Source of the DNA: Parcubacteria group bacterium
GTDB lineage: Bacteria > Patescibacteriota > Minisyncoccia > UBA10092
Direction of reading: 5' to 3'
Assembly (NCBI GenBank): GCA_016186325.1
Contig: JACPLW010000012.1
Location: 18,644-82,643 of the forward strand
Length of the DNA stretch: 64,000 nucleotides
The notes below the pieces were generated by a model. It did no database searches. It had not been told where the DNA came from and was given only the letters and a program-made list of their open reading frames with translations. Below are positions 7,878-59,540 of this stretch, one piece after another. Made by a program: the position numbers and the translations under genes. Within the stretch, counting starts at the first letter, position 1, and every line of letters begins with the position of its first letter.

Positions 7878-8669
7878 ATGCCTTCAAGCCGATACTACCG
7901 TTTCAAAACAGCAGACGAACAAGAAAAGAAAGAGAAATCTAAAACAAGGCTTTTTTGGAGCGCTTTTACGATTGCGTTACTTACAATAATCTGGTCGTTC
8001 TTCATGTCGCCATTTTTAAAAATTACCGAAATCCATATTCCCGAAAACGATGTTGTGACAAAAGAAGACATTAACAGATTAATAGCCGATAGTTTGCCGC
8101 TTAAAATCGGAATAAATATTTTACTTCTTCCGGGCGGCCGCCTTAAGGCGGATATGGCCGCTGCTTTTCCCACCATCACTAACTTAAAGATTAACAAAAA
8201 ATTATTCCACACTGTTGTAATCGGGTTCGAAAAAAGAGTGCAAATCGGATTCTGGTGTAATGAATTAAATTGCTATTCTTTTGATAAAGACGGAATTATT
8301 TTTAAAGAAGCGCCGATAAGCGAGGGATCGCTAATACTTAAAATAAAAGACTTCGAAAAAAAATCTGTTTCGATAGGCGATAAAATTTTGGATGATAGCA
8401 GTTTGAAATTCATTCTTTCTTTCAACGATACGGTGGAAAAATCCGGTCTTTTTAAAATTGGTGAATTTAAAATCAAACCGGCTTCCAATATTGATTTAGA
8501 AGCCGTAGTTGATGGCAATTGGTCTATTTATCTAGACTCGGCGCAAAGTCCGGAAATAGAGGCGTCAAACCTCTTCACGGTTGTAAACGAAGCGCTGAAA
8601 AATAAGTTAAATAGTTTATCCTACATTGACCTAAGAGTTCCCAGCCGGATTTTTTACAAATTAAAATAG
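7878..8669 (+). CDS. ftsQ: cell division protein FtsQ/DivIB-like (POTRA domain)
   Basis: 263 aa; basic N-terminus, single TM, then POTRA-like 'ITEIHIPENDVVTKEDINRLI...IGFEKRVQIGFWCNELNCYSFDKDGIIF'. Confidence 0.55.
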   Translation: MPSSRYYRFKTADEQEKKEKSKTRLFWSAFTIALLTIIWSFFMSPFLKITEIHIPENDVVTKEDINRLIADSLPLKIGINILLLPGGRLKADMAAAFPTITNLKINKKLFHTVVIGFEKRVQIGFWCNELNCYSFDKDGIIFKEAPISEGSLILKIKDFEKKSVSIGDKILDDSSLKFILSFNDTVEKSGLFKIGEFKIKPASNIDLEAVVDGNWSIYLDSAQSPEIEASNLFTVVNEALKNKLNSLSYIDLRVPSRIFYKLK

Positions 8670-8672
8670 CAT

Positions 8673-8700
8673 TTGACAAATCCTGTGGGTTTGATATAAT
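8673..8700 (+). promoter_or_regulatory. consensus sigma70-type promoter TTGACA-N16-TATAAT
   Basis: TTGACA 8673-8678, TATAAT 8695-8700, read directly; no downstream protein gene on this strand. Confidence 0.7.
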
Positions 8701-8706
8701 GAATAA

Positions 8707-8863
8707 TACCGGTTCGGGATGGTCTCGGCCGGATAGAAAAACCTCAGACTCAGAGGAGATCGCTATGAGGGCTCCGCCTTCGTTCGCGTTCGACGCGTCC
8801 CTTTCGTAACACACGTCGGCGCCGTCGGCTACACCCCGTCCCGCAACTGCGGGACGGGGCACT
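8707..8863 (+). ncRNA. candidate small RNA (unknown family), GC-rich, with embedded SD plus 14-codon sORF
   Basis: Bounded by consensus promoter and intrinsic terminator; ~55% GC in ~35% GC genome; GAGGAG then ATG (MRAPPSFAFDASLS*). Confidence 0.4.
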
Positions 8864-8870
8864 TTTTTTA
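8834..8870 (+). terminator. intrinsic terminator (CCCCGTCCCGC aact GCGGGACGGGG + T7)
   Basis: 11-bp perfect stem followed by TTTTTTT read directly. Confidence 0.8.
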
Positions 8871-10697
8871 TTTTAAATTATAAACAAAAATTGAATACCC
8901 AATTTTTACTACCGGCTTATACTGGTCAAGCCACGTATAAGAGCGTTCATTGTAAGAACAGGGGATTTTGTCGGCTTTGCAGGCGCCGCTGTAAATTGTC
9001 GCTGAAACTGCGAGCCACCCGGTTTGCGGCGCTTCGCGGTTGTAAGATTCAATCTTAACATTTTTAATATAATACTCCGCCGGAGCGCCGGAAAAATAAT
9101 CCATCTTAATTTCTTTGATATTATTTTTTTCTATAAAATCCGCTAGGCGCAAAATATCTTGCCCCCAATCTAAATTTGAATCAACAACCCATTTATGGCC
9201 ATTATTCGGTCCGCCGGCAATCTCGTTAAAGTAAGCAAGAAATGACGGATAAATAAAAAACACCGACAGAATCGCCCACGCGAAAAAAACTAAAATAACG
9301 AAGCTCCTCTTTATTCTTTTCCAATATAGACCGAATAGTTGCCAAAACCCGGAATAATTAGGAATTCTTTCGGTTATTCCTCCCTTAATCCAATTAGTAA
9401 TTTGACGCGCCGTGAGAGCGTAAATAAAAGGCAGTGTCGGCAGAATATGGCGTACGCCGATATTTAGCCGCGAATTTATTGAAAAAGCCCAATAAACTAT
9501 AATAATGGAAATCATTCCCGTTTCCACGGGGTTATTTTTTATTAAATCAATAAAATCCCGCCACCAGTGTTTTACCGATCGTTCACGGCAATGTCGAAAG
9601 CAGTGGTTTAACGCTAAAAGTAATCCAAAAACAACCATTAAAATATAAGCGAGCGGTTCTTTAATCAGATAAACGACGGGAAAATACGAGCGCGCTCCTT
9701 CCGCTGAAACTTCGCCAAGATAATAAGTCGTATTACCTCCTTCAGAACGCTGTAAAACCATCAAAAATCCTAAGAGATAGTGGCCCCAAGCTCTTAAATA
9801 TTGATTTGATGAAAGCCAAATATTAAAATCAGCAAGTGGCTTAATACCGAATGTGCTTAGTATAAATGTTGTGTCAACGGTTTGTTTTGAAGGCGGGTAA
9901 TTATAAATATGGAAGGCGTACACGGCGCCCACAAGTAAGAAAGATATAATCAAAGCAAAAATAAAACCTCCGACATACTTTTTTATCCAAAACCATTTTT
10001 TGTTTTGAATAAAAGCGTAAATTAAAGCAATCAACCCAAAAATCGGCATTAAAAGAAAGGTTGAAAATTTTGTAAGAAGCGCCAAACCAAGAACAACCCC
10101 GAAAACCCACAGATTTCTTTTTGTCGGCGTTTTAAGCCAGTGATATAAATAGTAAAAACTGATGAAAAACGCGGCTGCGGCGGCAACATCGGTGGTCACA
10201 AGCCGCGTATGCGCCAAAACGGTAGGGGAGAGAGAATAAAAGGCTAAAGCGATAATGCCGGCTAAATTACCCCACAATTCTTTGGTAAATCGCCAAATAT
10301 AAAATCCTAAAAGTAGCCCTATTAAAATTATAGGAATCCTCCCGTATCTCATCATTTTTTGCGCGTCGTTTCCGGAGTAATACAATAGATCGTTGCCAAA
10401 AGTAACATCTGTCTGCCAAGCCGGCGTTCTATTGATGTCCGACATCAATAGTGTGTTCCAGCCGGGACTTTGGTATGGAAATTTGATGTTTAAAAGTAAA
10501 AGCGGCAAGGCCGACAAATCTTTTACGAGAGGCGGATGTTCCGGATTTAGGCGCATATCTTGTTGCGTCAAATAAGAATAACCCGCCGGCAAGTGGATTC
10601 TTTCATCGTAATTGGCATTGTCATTCCACATGCTGGTTACGGCCAGCGCAGCAAAAACCACTAAAAGAATAAAAGCAATAATGTTGACAATTTTCAT
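8868..10697 (-). CDS. glycosyltransferase family 39 (PMT/ArnT-like) polytopic membrane protein
   Basis: 609 aa from ATG at 10697 (ORF-track N-terminal extension to 10844 overlaps tRNA-Leu on opposite strand and is rejected); 'DERIHLPAGYSYL' DE-motif after first TM, >10 TM, soluble C-terminal domain. Confidence 0.7.
   Translation of the reverse strand: MKIVNIIAFILLVVFAALAVTSMWNDNANYDERIHLPAGYSYLTQQDMRLNPEHPPLVKDLSALPLLLLNIKFPYQSPGWNTLLMSDINRTPAWQTDVTFGNDLLYYSGNDAQKMMRYGRIPIILIGLLLGFYIWRFTKELWGNLAGIIALAFYSLSPTVLAHTRLVTTDVAAAAAFFISFYYLYHWLKTPTKRNLWVFGVVLGLALLTKFSTFLLMPIFGLIALIYAFIQNKKWFWIKKYVGGFIFALIISFLLVGAVYAFHIYNYPPSKQTVDTTFILSTFGIKPLADFNIWLSSNQYLRAWGHYLLGFLMVLQRSEGGNTTYYLGEVSAEGARSYFPVVYLIKEPLAYILMVVFGLLLALNHCFRHCRERSVKHWWRDFIDLIKNNPVETGMISIIIVYWAFSINSRLNIGVRHILPTLPFIYALTARQITNWIKGGITERIPNYSGFWQLFGLYWKRIKRSFVILVFFAWAILSVFFIYPSFLAYFNEIAGGPNNGHKWVVDSNLDWGQDILRLADFIEKNNIKEIKMDYFSGAPAEYYIKNVKIESYNREAPQTGWLAVSATIYSGACKADKIPCSYNERSYTWLDQYKPVVKIGYSIFVYNLK
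10429..10451. repeat. 23-bp perfect palindrome CTATTGATGTC-C-GACATCAATAG inside GT39 gene, encodes 'LLMSDINR' in frame
   Basis: Read directly; same palindrome core recurs twice in the second GT39 gene at 12161-12213. Confidence 0.8.
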
Positions 10698-10712
10698 AAA
10701 ATATGATAAATT
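10684..10712 (+). promoter_or_regulatory. promoter of tRNA cluster: TTGACA-N17-TAAATT
   Basis: TTGACA 10684-10689, TAAATT 10707-10712, 11 nt upstream of tRNA-Leu. Confidence 0.55.
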
Positions 10713-10723
10713 AATAATGAGGT

Positions 10724-10808
10724 GCCGGCGTGGCGAAATGGCAGACGCGCTCCGCTTAAGATGGAGTGGGCAACTCCCGTGTCGGTTCAAGTCCGACCGC
10801 CGGTACCA
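10724..10808 (+). tRNA. tRNA-Leu (anticodon TAA), long variable arm, CCA encoded
   Basis: Acceptor GCCGGCG/CGCCGGT, anticodon loop CU-UAA-GA, T-arm GTCGGTTCAAGTCCGAC, 3' ACCA; folded by hand. Confidence 0.85.
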
Positions 10809-10829
10809 ATCTTTAAAAAACCAAGTGGC

Positions 10830-10904
10830 GCCGCCGTGACGCAATGGTAGCGTAGCGGCCTTTTAAGCCGAGAGTTGGAGGTTCAAGTCCTCCCGGCGGC
10901 ACCA
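10830..10904 (+). tRNA. tRNA-Lys (anticodon TTT), CCA encoded
   Basis: Acceptor GCCGCCG/CGGCGGC, anticodon loop CU-UUU-AA, T-arm GGAGGTTCAAGTCCTCC. Confidence 0.8.
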
Positions 10905-10916
10905 TCTTCGAATAGT

Positions 10917-10991
10917 GGGCCCGTAGCTCAACGGTAGAGCAGCCGGCTCATAACCGGTAGAGCGGAGGTTCAAATCCTCCCGGGCCCACCA
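10917..10991 (+). tRNA. tRNA-Met (anticodon CAT; elongator or tRNA-Ile2, not initiator)
   Basis: Acceptor GGGCCCG/CGGGCCC with paired 1:72, anticodon loop CU-CAU-AA, no GGG/CCC in anticodon stem, T-arm GGAGGTTCAAATCCTCC. Confidence 0.8.
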
Positions 10992-18612: not shown

Positions 18613-19224
18613 ATGCGCGCAACCGTTTTCATTTTTGCTGTATTTATTTTTCTTGTAATCCCGCCTGTTTTCAGGCCTGAAATAGAAAATGCCGCCGATA
18701 TGCCGTATCGGCTTGACCAAAAATTTATTGAAGATATTTGGAAAAAAGTTATTCGGTTAACAAACGAAGAGGCAATAATTTTAAAAGTTGAGCCGGACAT
18801 TAAAGCGCCAAAAATAATATACATTAGCGAGCAACCGAGAGTTTCGAGACGGGGCCTACTTATTGCCGCAAAAATTACATATTATGTTGACAAAAAAATC
18901 TTGGATGAAGAAAAGATTCAAAAAGTGCTTCTGGACTATCCGAGGGTGATACGGATATATCCAGCGGCGTTTCTGCCGCTGGAAATGGCTGGCGAGCTGG
19001 TATATGGATTTATCGCTCAGGAATTCTTTCACGAAACATTGCTTCAACAATACGTTCTTCCGGATTATCACCATTGCGCGATGATTTATCGCGGCACGCT
19101 TCTTAAAGCGCTAATGTTTATAGACGGGCGCCTTGGTACGGGAAAGCGAATTACCGATACGGTTATCAAACATACCAAAGCTCAATGCGAAGAAGATTCC
19201 GGCGGCCGTATCCGTTTTAAATAA
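18613..19224 (+). CDS. hypothetical protein with N-terminal signal/TM
   Basis: 203 aa, hydrophobic N-terminus, good SD; no domain recognised. Confidence 0.5.
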   Translation: MRATVFIFAVFIFLVIPPVFRPEIENAADMPYRLDQKFIEDIWKKVIRLTNEEAIILKVEPDIKAPKIIYISEQPRVSRRGLLIAAKITYYVDKKILDEEKIQKVLLDYPRVIRIYPAAFLPLEMAGELVYGFIAQEFFHETLLQQYVLPDYHHCAMIYRGTLLKALMFIDGRLGTGKRITDTVIKHTKAQCEEDSGGRIRFK

Positions 19225-24302: not shown

Positions 24303-24917
24303 ATGAAATACGAACTGCCAAAACTGCCATATTCTTACGATGCACTAGAACCTTACATTGACACTAAGACAATGGAAATCCACCATGGAAAACACCATCA
24401 GTTTTATATTGATAAGCTCAACGCTGCTTTGGAAAAATATCCCGATTTAGCCGATAACCCCGCCCTTAAGCTTAAGAGCGGGGATAAAAAACTGGAGGAG
24501 CTTATAAAAGACCTGCCCAATTTAACTATGGTAGACGAAGCCGACAAAAAAGCGATTCATAACAACGGCGGGGGACACATAAACCATTCGTTTTTCTGGC
24601 AAATTATGGCGCCGCAAAAAGAAGTTGATGAAGCATTGTTTGAAGAGATTAAATCAACTTTCGGTTCGCCGGAAGAATTTAAAAAAATATTCAGCAACAC
24701 CGCCGCCACCCACTTTGGCAGCGGATGGGCTTGGCTGGCGCGCGACGAACAAAATAAACTTCAAATATATTCATTGCCAAATCATGATTTTCCTTATTTG
24801 AAAGGCCATCAGCCTCTTATAGTACTTGATCTCTGGGAACACGCCTATTATCTAAAATACCAGAACCGCCGGGCCGAATATATAGAAAATTGGTGGAATG
24901 TTTTGAAGTTATTATAG
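24303..24917 (+). CDS. sodA: Fe/Mn superoxide dismutase
   Basis: 204 aa; 'LPYSYDALEPYID..MEIHHGKHH', 'DLWEHAYY'. Confidence 0.95.
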   Translation: MKYELPKLPYSYDALEPYIDTKTMEIHHGKHHQFYIDKLNAALEKYPDLADNPALKLKSGDKKLEELIKDLPNLTMVDEADKKAIHNNGGGHINHSFFWQIMAPQKEVDEALFEEIKSTFGSPEEFKKIFSNTAATHFGSGWAWLARDEQNKLQIYSLPNHDFPYLKGHQPLIVLDLWEHAYYLKYQNRRAEYIENWWNVLKLL

Positions 24918-24923
24918 GGTTGG

Positions 24924-25041
24924 CCCCGTTAGAAGTCCGACAAGTCGGCAGACGTCGTCGGCGTCTTACTTCTAACGGGGTTGACCCCGTTAGAAGTCCG
25001 ACAAGTCGGCAGACGCCGTCGGCGTCTTACTTCTAACGGGG
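24924..25041. repeat. two tandem 57-bp GC-rich palindromic elements (CCCCGTTAGAAGT..ACTTCTAACGGGG) separated by TTGA
   Basis: Copies 24924-24980 and 24985-25041 differ at one base; second copy abuts the -35 TTGACA of the downstream promoter. Confidence 0.85.
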
Positions 25042-25069
25042 TTGACAGATTATGTAGATTTGATATAAT
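25042..25069 (+). promoter_or_regulatory. consensus promoter TTGACA-N16-TATAAT (near-twin of promoter at 8673)
   Basis: TTGACA 25042-25047, TATAAT 25064-25069; both promoters share 'tttgaTATAATg'. Confidence 0.7.
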
Positions 25070-25075
25070 GTAGGT

Positions 25076-25573
25076 AATGCTGGGAAACAGGCCGAATCCT
25101 GGTTGTAAGACAAGTTTCAGGTGCCTCGAAGAGCATGGACCTATCCCAGCAGCACATTTTTCCTTAACAAAGCCAAAAATCGGCGCGACAGTTCTGTAAC
25201 TGTCCAAATGTGCCGGAGACTAACCTTTGCGGTTTTGCCTCTGTCGCGCCGAACAAAATCCCGTTGCCACTGTCGCTGTCGCGACAGGGGAGACGCCTTC
25301 TTACCTAGCGTCTCGTGAAGCAACGGAACTAAAGTCCTGGCCACATGTCCATGCGGGGTTGGTGGTCCAGGAGCGGTGCCCTATCGCCACAAGTGAGATG
25401 GGCAAACCGATGGTAGTGAGCCTCTCGGTTAGTAATTCAACTCCTTCGCTGTTGACCTATGGTCCACGGTGAATGCGCCTCTTGGCACACCCGTGTAAAG
25501 GATGGCCGCCATGTGCCGTCTAACAGCGAAGATCGTTCCTGCCTGCGCGAGCTCACCGCGCAGGCCTTTTTTT
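25076..25573 (+). ncRNA. candidate ~500-nt structured non-coding RNA of unknown family
   Basis: GC-rich (~55%) island with multiple long-range complementary segments (TCGGCGCGACAG/CTGTCGCGCCGA, CCGTTGC/GCAACGG, GAGACGC/GCGTCTC), no convincing ORF, promoter and terminator on + strand. Confidence 0.5.
25541..25573 (+). terminator. intrinsic terminator GCCTGCGCG agctcacc GCGCAGGC + T7
   Basis: Read directly. Confidence 0.8.
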
Positions 25574-40058: not shown

Positions 40059-40277
40059 TCATTTCGTATGTTTTTCTAGCGCTTCTCTTATAGACTCGAC
40101 TTCGTATTCTCTCTTGAACGTATCCCAACGCATATCTTTGCGCACGTTGAAATCAACGTTGTAGCGTTTCTCTAGTGTTTCTATCTTAGTATCACCGCGA
40201 ATTTTTTTAAGACGACCTCCTTGTGTCCTTGCTGCATGACCGGGCATATTTGGTGCGTTAGTATCTAGTTTTGGCAT
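40059..40277 (-). CDS. hypothetical small basic protein (72 aa)
   Basis: ORF preceded by GC-rich leader with terminator (40322-40342). Confidence 0.4.
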   Translation of the reverse strand: MPKLDTNAPNMPGHAARTQGGRLKKIRGDTKIETLEKRYNVDFNVRKDMRWDTFKREYEVESIREALEKHTK

Positions 40278-40420: not shown

Positions 40421-40573
40421 ATTTAATAAATTTAAAATTTTATAAATCCCCGATTGATGGATGCCGATTTTTAGTTGTTATTTAGATTTTAACAAATGTA
40501 TTACGTATGTCAATACAATATGTGGATAACTTTCGGTTTATTTTCGGTATCAGAAGTTTTATAATTAATATAT

Positions 40574-45985: not shown

Positions 45986-46047
45986 TTATGAAAGCGTTTT
46001 AGCATGGTTCCCCCGCAACTGCGGGGAATAAAACGCTTTCATCGGAC
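45986..46047. repeat. compound hairpin ATGAAAGCGTTTTA-[..CCCCCGCAACTGCGGGG..]-TAAAACGCTTTCAT then GTCCCGCgctgGCGGGACGAGCGCGCGAG
   Basis: 14-bp IR flanking the recurrent CCCGCAACTGCGGG core; related GTCCCGCG..GCGGGACGAGCG motif at 47585-47625. Confidence 0.6.
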
Positions 46048-49346: not shown

Positions 49347-50318
49347 ATGAATAAATTCACAGCGTATTTCTTTCTGTTTGTTACCCTACTTCTGCCAAAT
49401 CTCACGCAAGCCAGCTCTTTTGATGCAAAAATCGAGTTTAGCAACGCTAAAAAACTTTGTCTCGCAAAGCTCGGGGAAGATAACCTAAATCAATGGGAAA
49501 AAATCACCCTTGAGGACGGTACAATCATTGTCTGTGGAAAAGGTGAGAAAACGCCGTGGAGTGAGACAACCGGCCCAGAAATTACGGTACTTACTGAAAC
49601 CGGAGGTCGTACCTGCGCCTCAACGGCTTATAACCTCTCTGGAAATTTGCAGACCCTTGGCATATCTGCCGGAGAAACCGCGAGAACACTCATTGTCATT
49701 ATGGGTAGTGTTCTTGAAAAGATGAAGGAAACCGGTAGGTATGATTACGAAATTACTGACGCGCTTTTCCGCCAAATAAACGAACTTCTGCCGTCTCTTG
49801 ATTGGATAGTCAAAGACAGCGGCTGGTATATTTTGGGTGAAGCAGATAGTGCGCTCTCGCGGCTCTCATACATGGGACGTCTTTACGGCAAGCGTTACGG
49901 CATGCAAGTCATATCACTTTTCAACCAACTCATAGTAGATGGCAATGCGCGCTACCGAGATAACGAAGCGTGGTCGTTGTATTATAGAAAAGAAATCCTA
50001 AAGAATTTATACTATGCGATTAACGGCCTGATTCTTATTTCGGATACATTGCCGGACTGGGAAAAACCCACAAAACAGGAAATGAAAGAACTTGCCAAGA
50101 CATACCTTGAGTTTATAAAAGCTTACCCAGAAAAACACGGCTGGCTTTCAAAAAAAGAAATAGAAGTATTGGCCGATACCGACCCAGACATTCTTGCGGA
50201 AATTAGGAAGCTGGAAACGAAACGTGAAGAGACGGCTAACCTGAAAAACGTTACGGAAGAAGCAGAAAAAGAGTGGCAGAAAAAACAACCGGACATCATT
50301 GATACCGTTGAAAATTAA
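49347..50318 (+). CDS. secreted hypothetical protein (323 aa), visibly higher GC than neighbours
   Basis: Signal peptide 'MNKFTAYFFLFVTLLLPNLTQASS'; canonical SD; terminator hairpin AACCGCCTCGCAAGGCGGTT follows. Confidence 0.55.
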   Translation: MNKFTAYFFLFVTLLLPNLTQASSFDAKIEFSNAKKLCLAKLGEDNLNQWEKITLEDGTIIVCGKGEKTPWSETTGPEITVLTETGGRTCASTAYNLSGNLQTLGISAGETARTLIVIMGSVLEKMKETGRYDYEITDALFRQINELLPSLDWIVKDSGWYILGEADSALSRLSYMGRLYGKRYGMQVISLFNQLIVDGNARYRDNEAWSLYYRKEILKNLYYAINGLILISDTLPDWEKPTKQEMKELAKTYLEFIKAYPEKHGWLSKKEIEVLADTDPDILAEIRKLETKREETANLKNVTEEAEKEWQKKQPDIIDTVEN

Positions 50319-50352: not shown

Positions 50353-50521
50353 TCTTATGTACCTAAACTATCAAGAAGCTTTCTTAACCAGCTCTCATCT
50401 TCGGCCTTCTTTTTGTTAAACAGTAGTTACTTCACCCTCTGTAAATTTTCTATCACAATTATCGCAAGCGGTTTTATCGCCCCCATATCCTTCCAAGTCC
50501 TCGTAGTCCATTTTTTCCTCC

Positions 50522-59204: not shown

Positions 59205-59540
59205 GGCAGGTGAAAGGAAACTATAAGCCGGATTCTGTCCCCGCAACTGCGGGGGACGATTATCTATCTGAGCTCTGCATTGCTGCCGAGCTTTAGCCCT
59301 CATAACGAGGTTGCACCCAGTAAGGATTTAGCCGTTTCACTTCCATATTTCTATGGAATTCACCCTGCAAATGCGGGGTGCCTTGCGCCTTTCGGCGCCC
59401 GGCGTCGCTGTTCGCACCTCTCGCGTTATTTATTTCGCGGCGGGTCGTTAACCCGTACGCTTTTCCCCCGCAACTGCGGGGTGGTGTCCGGACTTTCCTC
59501 CCCTCGATAAACTCAGGGCAATCGTCCGTTTCCTTAATTA
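59205..59540 (-). ncRNA. rnpB: RNase P RNA (bacterial type A)
   Basis: Minus strand shows CR-I 'GGAGGAAAGUCCGGAC' and CR-V 'ACAGAAUCCGGCUUAUAG' (P4 halves complementary), 3' tail 'GUUUCCUUUCACCU' pairing with 5' 'AGGAAAC'. Confidence 0.85.

Follow-up and report, generated by a model that had tools for sequence, protein, structure and literature searches.

A 5′-terminal stem-loop combined with a strong Shine-Dalgarno (SD) sequence is a classical stabilizer of Gram-positive mRNAs, as in the aprE leader of Bacillus subtilis and the STAB-SD of Bacillus thuringiensis cryIIIA, and this arrangement protects RNAs from 5′-end-dependent decay. Small RNAs (sRNAs) that also encode peptides of around 15 amino acids (aa) have been reviewed (PMC12310071, PMC12612679), and the Spot 42 sRNA of E. 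coli encodes the 15-aa SpfP (PMC8916003). The tetrapeptides RAPP and RSPP are prone to cause arrest and are depleted in proteomes, and a RAPP-type motif alone is insufficient for arrest, which also requires the N-terminal region next to the motif (PMC12992588). In the SD-blind Bacteroidia, rpsU is the lone gene led by an SD sequence (PMC13000453, PMC7797042). Here we describe a promoter-to-terminator unit at positions 8673–8870, on the plus strand of a 64,000-nt stretch of DNA (the window), and compare it with these systems. The host is a Candidatus Azambacteria metagenome-assembled genome (MAG), an uncultivated groundwater bacterium of the candidate phyla radiation (CPR). Related loci are labelled L###.

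The unit consists of a consensus promoter, a 5′ hairpin module, an SD-like site with a start codon, a mini open reading frame (ORF) and an intrinsic terminator; this anatomy is conserved in related lineages and belongs to no known RNA family. From the sequence we infer a transcription start, translation, stability and a downstream effect, and we tentatively read the unit, with a probability of roughly 40%, as an independently transcribed, stable small RNA that would load ribosomes, either a dual-function sRNA or a kind of mini-mRNA, whose peptide is probably not constrained in sequence. This reading is favored because selection appears to preserve the ribosome-binding geometry and the RNA modules and not the peptide. 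The SD site and start codon are kept in 5/5 lineages while the ~90 nt between SD and terminator are 48–65% identical, in a genome without SD enrichment, which lends indirect support to the loading of ribosomes. By its features the unit would look like a highly expressed, long-lived small RNA. Its parts and the two genes that flank it are as follows.

8673–8700, plus strand: promoter of the sigma-70 type with an extended -10 element (-35 box TTGACA at 8673–8678, 16-nt spacer, TG at 8692–8693, TATAAT at 8695–8700).
8705–8744, plus strand: 5′ module made up of AAUA, a hairpin and an A-rich tail, AUAGAAAAACC, from the fold of the module and the consensus structure.
8753–8758, plus strand: SD-like GAGGAG (AAGGAGG in homologs), 6 nt ahead of the ATG, read from the sequence and predicted to pair with CCUC at 8743–8746.
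8765–8809, plus strand: mini-ORF of 14 codons and a stop, from the ATG at 8765 to the TAA ending at 8809, translated as MRAPPSFAFDASLS.
8810–8833, plus strand: GC-rich spacer from stop codon to terminator, CACACGUCGGCGCCGUCGGCUACA, of which GCCGUCGGC is also found in L024; no consensus structure was found for it.
8834–8869, plus strand: intrinsic terminator from a terminator scan, with GC-rich equivalents of different sequence in all homologs.
7878–8669, plus strand: ftsQ-like gene of 263 aa (stop codon 8667–8669), from the ORF list; proteins homologous to its product carry the name FtsQ-type POTRA protein or Candidatus Azambacteria.
8868–10700, minus strand: convergent gene for a PMT_2-family glycosyltransferase, from the ORF list (Pfam PMT_2, 2e-12).

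Promoter, terminator and GC island all exceed chance. The promoter scan gave the site at 8673–8700 the full score of 12/12 for TTGACA-N16-(TG)TATAAT, and perfect sites number two in the window, at 8673 and at 25042, where 0.06 would be expected. Both score 12/12 and have the 12-mer TTTGATATAATG in common, which bears out the statement in the initial annotation that the one promoter closely resembles the other. Downstream, 8708–8876 forms an island of 59% GC in a window of 39% GC, so that the proposal of a discrete GC-rich unit with its own promoter and terminator also holds. The 11-bp GC stem and T7 run described earlier were recovered as a stem at 8834–8859 with 11 pairs, 10 of them G-C, and a 4-nt loop AACU, followed by CAC and the seven T residues at 8863–8869; this is the strongest terminator-like site of the neighbourhood. 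Both bounding signals are as strong as possible, and both are conserved in homologs. From the position of the -10 element the transcript would start at ~8706–8708 and be ~160 nt long.

Relatives of the locus were found via alignment of the FtsQ-like protein, with twelve exact-protein contig look-ups and one metagenome DNA-pattern scan. Homologous units are present in four other Azambacteria-like lineages, all of them in the gap between ftsQ and the PMT_2 gene: L019 (= L020; FtsQ 81% identical to that of the window), L001 (57%), L024 (= L025; 56%) and L125, which lies on a 2.5-kb contig with the synteny of the window. The layout of ftsQ, unit and convergent PMT_2 gene is identical in L019, L024 and L125, and L001 also has the unit in the gap; no same-strand gene follows the unit in any homolog. 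In a sixth locus, L153, ftsQ is directly followed by one half of a terminator, which is a deletion remnant, and ~100 nt further on there is an intact promoter of the window type, cut off by the end of the contig. The comparison thus rests on five independent sequences. In the comparative alignment suggested by the initial annotation these homologs keep promoter, SD and start codon, short ORF and terminator, and the unit is therefore not an accident of one genome.

The promoter is conserved together with its spacer motif (TTGACA-R.TT.TGT.G.-TTTG-N-TATAAT) in L019, L001, L125, L024 and L153, and in ~250 kb of fetched CPR sequence its strict form occurs only ahead of these units and of the unit at 25042. 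Also conserved is the 5′ module, which is 80–93% identical between lineages against 64–83% for the adjacent ftsQ. Its two-tier hairpin has an outer stem (8709–8713/8728–8732), an inner stem (8715–8719/8723–8727) and a UGG loop, and begins 0–3 nt from the inferred start, so that it is essentially 5′-terminal. The consensus of the module is AAUACCGG-UUCGGGAYGGUCUCG-(G/AUA)CCGGAU followed by the A-rich tail, and within the 23-nt hairpin core one transition is the sole difference between lineages. As the hairpin is invariant it offers no covariation, and it is its sequence, not its shape alone, that is constrained. Terminators are strong in every homolog with lineage-specific sequences, and a GC content of 56–62% is kept in all of them despite sequence turnover, which argues for selection at the RNA level. 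Folding of the whole transcript gave z = -2.25 (antisense strand, -2.22), a moderate excess of stability over shuffled sequences, and that of the 98-nt middle part (8736–8833) z = -0.63; given the weak value in the middle, the stability signal stems from the 5′ hairpin and the terminator. No perfect complement of at least 11 nt to the 5′ module was found within the window. A ranking of targets among neighbouring genes with RNAduplex returned implausible long-loop structures and was discarded, and a possible 11-bp pairing of the hairpin (GGUUCGGGAUGG) with 5S rRNA (CCAUUCCGAAC) was judged to be chance.

The genome is SD-poor and hardly uses SD sequences: the window holds 19 instances of GGAG-N4-9-ATG against 22 expected and 12 of AGGAGG against 16 expected, and an SD-like motif stands upstream of 5 of its 54 long ORFs. 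At such chance levels the SD/ATG pair of the unit is meaningful only via its conservation in homologs. That conservation is complete, AGGAGG (GAGGAG in the window) being followed after 5–6 nt by ATG (GTG in L125) in all five lineages. The initial annotation was correct in placing GAGGAG and an ATG-led 14-codon ORF here, and erred in their spacing, which is N6 and not N7. The reading frame behind the start codon is far more variable. Homolog ORFs are 10–15 codons long and fall into two N-terminal types: MRAPPSFAFDASLS (window), MKAPPSSFGSHFDKR and MRSPPLSRKG on the one hand, and MRHLSTQGNYT and MRHLLTDQGG (with the GTG start) on the other. GC content at third codon positions (GC3) is 0.79 in the window ORF and 0.50–0.82 over the homologs, compared with 0.35–0.40 in five flanking genes. 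The 48–65% identity of the stretch from SD to terminator compares with 64–83% for ftsQ; for the window and L019 the two values are 53% and 83%. Both indels inside the ORFs are of 3 nt and Pro-Pro is retained via synonymous codon changes, which may be taken as weak hints of a reading frame. With homologs compared in all frames, no conserved ORF longer than the mini-ORF was found on either strand; a 95-aa minus-strand ORF (8575–8862) was rejected as a gene, its reading frame not being conserved in homologs.

These features would fit together as follows. The near-consensus extended -10 promoter would fire at ~8706–8708, and the transcript would open directly with the almost invariant hairpin module. 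Next would come AAGGAGG, 5–6 nt and an AUG or GUG, a site that may be partly masked by short CU-rich partner strands, then the fast-evolving GC-rich mini-ORF of 10–15 codons, and the RNA would end at the strong intrinsic terminator. Ribosomes would initiate at this site, and selection would keep the act or site of loading together with the RNA modules (5′ hairpin, GC clamp and terminator) and not a defined peptide. The 5′-terminal hairpin and the SD-bound ribosome could together protect the RNA from decay that depends on its 5′ end.

Several points weigh against this reading. The stop codon of the ftsQ-like gene lies 3 nt upstream of the -35 box and no terminator was found between that stop codon and the promoter of the unit, so that ftsQ read-through transcripts would include the unit; its independent start rests solely on the consensus promoter, and read-through could supply the RNA instead. 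Across the five lineages neither a conserved structure nor covariation is seen in the middle part, and consequently no mechanism at the RNA level can be named. In ensemble folds the core of the SD site is mostly paired; its predicted partner in every homolog is a CU-rich strand close by, up- or downstream, and the Ala-Pro codons GCUCCG supply a CUCC strand able to pair with it. The peptide is conserved neither in length nor in sequence and its GC3 is atypical, which makes a functional peptide doubtful, and 10–15 stop-free codons are unremarkable in GC-rich sequence. Lastly, ~16 related loci lack the unit in the gap, some of them with FtsQ 76–79% identical (L021, L026, L150); the gap in these loci is empty or holds unrelated hairpins, and the unit is hence dispensable or sited elsewhere.

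The main rival is a purely non-coding sRNA in which AAGGAGG...AUG would play no part in translation; it would be one strand of the structure, or a motif that binds the 3′ end of 16S rRNA, a CU-rich target or a GGA-binding protein, and the 5′ hairpin would be the functional module. We regard this as possible and somewhat less probable than the dual-function reading. Known structured RNAs (tRNAs, RNase P RNA, 5S rRNA) account for most of the GC-rich islands of this AT-rich genome, and a nearly invariant hairpin sequence, an ORF body that evolves faster than the adjacent ftsQ with non-genic codon use, and the scarcity of SD sequences in the genome would all suit such an RNA. So would the predicted pairing of the SD with CCUC or CUCC strands in all homologs, where the proline codons of the window and of L024 (GCUCCGCC) double as anti-SD. 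It sits less easily with an SD-start spacing held at 5–6 nt in every lineage, with a start codon that stays competent when ATG changes to GTG in L125, with a middle part devoid of a conserved fold or covariation, with the failure to find a complement of at least 11 nt to the 5′ module in the window, and with the lack of an Rfam family match. By analogy with rpsU of the Bacteroidia, the unit might also, in this SD-poor genome, be a ribosome-dedicated decoy or sensor RNA that engages the anti-SD of 16S rRNA and titrates or reports ribosomes with a free anti-SD; its 5′ module would then be exchangeable between RNAs, as in the hybrid L024 with a 5′ domain of the 497-nt-RNA type described below. 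We consider this improbable.

A role in cis, in which the unit would terminate or insulate ftsQ and act as a strongly expressed, convergent antisense partner of the PMT_2 mRNA 3′ end through interference or a duplex with a read-through 3′ untranslated region, is unlikely, albeit less so than the decoy. The unit is always located in this gap, its terminator overlaps the PMT_2 stop codon or lies a few nt away from it (in the window the stop codon at 8868–8870 overlaps the last two T residues of the T-run), no other terminator separates it from ftsQ, relatives without it have other hairpins or nothing in the gap, and the minus-strand hairpin has no T-run, so that PMT transcripts probably cross the unit antisense. 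However, such a role leaves the SD and start codon, the invariant 5′ hairpin and the consensus promoter unexplained, the position would be conserved by descent anyway since the lysS-serS-ftsQ-PMT synteny is conserved, and many relatives have an ftsQ-PMT gap of a few nt only. That the unit is a functionless leftover or a selfish promoter/terminator cassette persisting in a few lineages is slightly less probable still than the decoy: its patchiness among close relatives, the deletion remnant in L153 and the rapid turnover of the middle region are as such a history would predict, but GC richness, perfect promoter, SD and start codon and hairpin are retained at an ftsQ identity of only ~65%, where decay in a 39% GC genome should have erased them, and no repeats or mobility genes flank the unit. 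Least probable of all is a regulatory leader or arrest peptide, in which pausing on MRAPP or MRSPP, whether RAPP-like or as an EF-P-dependent Pro-Pro stall, would control the terminator or the fate of the RNA as in attenuators or ApdA, ApdP and SecM. The window ORF has M-RAPP and L019 M-RSPP, both arrest-prone (PMC12992588), with KAPP in L024; Pro-Pro is kept, and the small ORF lies 25–45 nt ahead of the terminator. Yet only the initiator Met precedes the motif, where an adjacent N-terminal region is required (PMC12992588), the clade B homologs (MRHLST.., MRHLLT..) lack Pro-Pro, no homolog has a same-strand gene downstream to be regulated, and the CUCC of the Ala-Pro codons is explicable as an anti-SD strand. 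The sole antiterminator-like pairing, of the 5′ CGGGAUGG with CCGUCCCG in the terminator arm, was rejected as it is found in the window and not in L019, L001, L125 or L024. A trpL-type attenuator was likewise discarded, the next gene being convergent and the homologs having no shared antiterminator and no repeated codon type in their ORFs. Of the two labels offered by the initial annotation, dual-function RNA therefore remains the best available, and leader peptide is not borne out for want of a same-strand downstream gene and a conserved antiterminator.

At gathering scores Rfam 15 reported no family at 8673–8870 in a scan of the whole window, and with E values up to 10 the region 8600–8950 returned terminator-hairpin noise only, at 13–19 bits against thresholds of 39–171; the Rfam scan suggested alongside the alignment thus yields no match at either stringency. 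ARAGORN found no tmRNA. Inspection by eye for SRP domain IV, for a preQ1-I-like hairpin with A-rich tail and for a tRNA-like T-arm and CCA end gave no fit, with which Rfam agrees. A 6S RNA was rejected, as the 5′ end is a local hairpin and the 3′ end a terminator in all five homologs and no rod is formed; the sole pairing seen that joins the 3′ end to the 5′ region, through the 5′ arm of the terminator, is specific to the window.

The distribution of the unit was traced as far as the contig look-ups and the pattern scan reached. Eight of the look-ups (P0006, P0026, P0033, P0012, P0003, P0009, P0023 and P0008) gave no further complete homolog, seven of these loci having no unit in the gap and the eighth, L153, the remnant and truncated promoter only. 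Scanning of metagenomes with the 19-mer CCGGTTCGGGANGGTCTCG returned, among the matches listed, L125 as the sole true homolog; the other matches listed are chance occurrences in high-GC genomes, some of them in 16S rRNA genes. A scan of viral contigs gave 0 matches. In L005, L006, L009, L022, L027, L029, L150 and L153 the sequence downstream of ftsQ holds long AT-rich hairpins with an apex palindrome CCGATCGG or CGATCG (for example GTGTCGTTATTCAACCGATCGGTCTTATAACAGCAC), which are probably terminators or a second palindromic repeat family.

With regard to the neighbouring genes, the ftsQ-like protein is 100% identical to one from a Parcubacteria-group MAG, and its nearest relatives are annotated Candidatus Azambacteria. 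On the far side of the unit, three tRNA genes (Leu-UAA, Lys-UUU and Met-CAU) occupy 10724–10991 on the plus strand, opposite to and between two tandem PMT_2 genes. For the first of these PMT_2 genes the ORF call (658 aa) runs to 10844 and overlaps the tRNA genes, and the real start of the gene is therefore probably near 10700.

The second perfect promoter, at 25042 on the plus strand, heads a GC-rich RNA of 497 nt (25076–25572; terminator ~25541–25572) that sits between a gene for Fe/Mn superoxide dismutase and a convergent gene for methionyl-tRNA formyltransferase. The RNA is strongly structured (z = -4.26) and has no Rfam match, and we regard it as a candidate novel large non-coding RNA. Like the unit at 8673, it has the promoter type with TTTGATATAATG and an AAU start followed by a terminal stem; unlike that unit, it is three times longer, strongly structured and without the AAGGAGG-start element, and its remaining sequence is unrelated. 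A link between the two is provided by L024, in which a domain of ~80 nt replaces or expands the short 5′ hairpin. This domain has a 7-bp closing stem (UGCUGGG/CCCAGCA) and an AAU leader identical to the start of the 25076–25572 RNA, and the rest of L024 (SD, MKAPPS.., GCCGUCGGC and terminator) is closest to the window unit, at 60% identity. Read from the sequences, the basal stems CCGG/CCGG and CUGGG/CCCAG differ by one compensatory change of C-G to U-A. The 5′ modules thus appear to have been exchanged between RNA genes of the 8673 and 25042 types.

Two side observations concern promoters of this kind and their surroundings. A family of palindromic elements is found between genes at 24917–25038, 11206/11250, 26492/26577, 29373/29461, 46605/46693, 49122/49209 and 19290; their terminal inverted repeats (CCCCGTTAGAA...TTCTAACGGGG) amount to 15 half-sites, where 0.19 would be expected. 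Two tandem 61-nt copies lie directly upstream of the 25042 promoter, the second overlapping its -35 box, and three copies abut the start codons of genes (TTTCTAACGGGATG). A third strong promoter at 40513–40486 on the minus strand (TTGACA-N16-TGTTAAAAT) is followed by a leader of ~200 nt up to an ORF start at 40276. This leader holds a terminator-like hairpin, CGCGGGAAAGCCGCG, with a T-run, has no Rfam match at the gathering score, and is possibly a riboswitch or attenuator leader.

The terminator of the unit also shares sequence with other loci in the window. Its 14-mer hairpin CCCGCAACTGCGGG is present in four copies, against 0.01 expected, at 8840, 46012, 59240 and 59467, all on the plus strand. 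The initial annotation had noted that this core recurs in rnpB and at 46016; the recurrence is real (the latter copy starting at 46012), with the qualification that rnpB is on the minus strand, so that RNase P RNA carries the complement CCCGCAGUUGCGGG, and that the terminators of the homologs lack the 14-mer. The two rnpB copies are peripheral hairpins of RNase P RNA, and given the opposite strands there is exact complementarity between the terminator of the small RNA and two hairpins of RNase P RNA. Since CCCGCAACTGCGGG is not conserved, this is a curiosity within one genome on the opposite RNA strand and not a feature of the family. The RNase P RNA itself (59208–59537, minus strand) scores only 106 bits against a threshold of 100, and both its P5-P7 region and its equivalent of P19 contain inserted peripheral hairpins that are atypical.

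Almost nothing is known of the small RNAs and small ORFs of CPR bacteria; these are uncultivated, and their tiny genomes leave little space for accessory DNA. Against this background a conserved, probably highly expressed RNA without a family is a concrete candidate for study by metatranscriptomics or in a heterologous reporter. An invariant 5′ hairpin and a conserved ribosome-binding site come together in the unit, in a genome that makes scarcely any use of such sites, and the apparent swap of 5′ modules with the 497-nt RNA is a hint that the two have an expression or regulatory cassette in common. Should the unit prove to be a decoy or sensor of the sort proposed above, it would represent a new type of regulatory RNA directed at ribosomes; if it is no more than a stable mini-mRNA whose peptide is not conserved, its importance in general would be modest.

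Of the systems set out at the beginning, the arrest peptides of the RAPP type (ApdA, ApdP and SecM-like; PMC10951233, PMC12992588) resemble the unit in their motif, since the window ORF begins M-R-A-P-P and that of L019 M-R-S-P-P. The core of RAPP/RGPP type is RAPP in the window, RSPP in L019 and KAPP in L024, with none in L001 or L125; unlike in the arrest peptides it is N-terminal and not C-terminal, has no preceding region and no regulated downstream gene, and is absent in 2/5 lineages. As with rpsU of the Bacteroidia, the unit has a strong, conserved SD that is conspicuous in a genome otherwise without SD enrichment; unlike there, the host is a CPR bacterium and the ORF does not encode bS21. 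Perfect SD sequences in the window also precede a few other genes, namely those of hypothetical proteins at 18613 and at 49347 and, on the minus strand behind TAAGGAGGAAAAAATG, an ORF of 31 codons at 50511; given the good SDs at 18613 and 49347, the ribosomes of this host are probably not SD-blind. The aprE and STAB-SD leaders share an architecture with the unit, whose hairpin likewise lies no more than a few nt from the inferred +1 and precedes a perfect SD. These leaders precede long protein genes, whereas the unit has an ORF of 10–15 codons only, and the conservation of its hairpin in sequence and not in shape alone suggests a specific partner. A further parallel is with dual-function sRNAs such as Spot 42. 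The unit has no sequence or structural relation to Spot 42, its peptide is not conserved and its translation is only predicted; like these sRNAs, it would be a stand-alone RNA of ~100–200 nt that has a promoter and an intrinsic terminator of its own and carries a ribosome-binding site together with an ORF of ~15 codons. The unit fits no described family and is best filed as a new, lineage-restricted bacterial small RNA with a mini-ORF, found in part of Candidatus Azambacteria.

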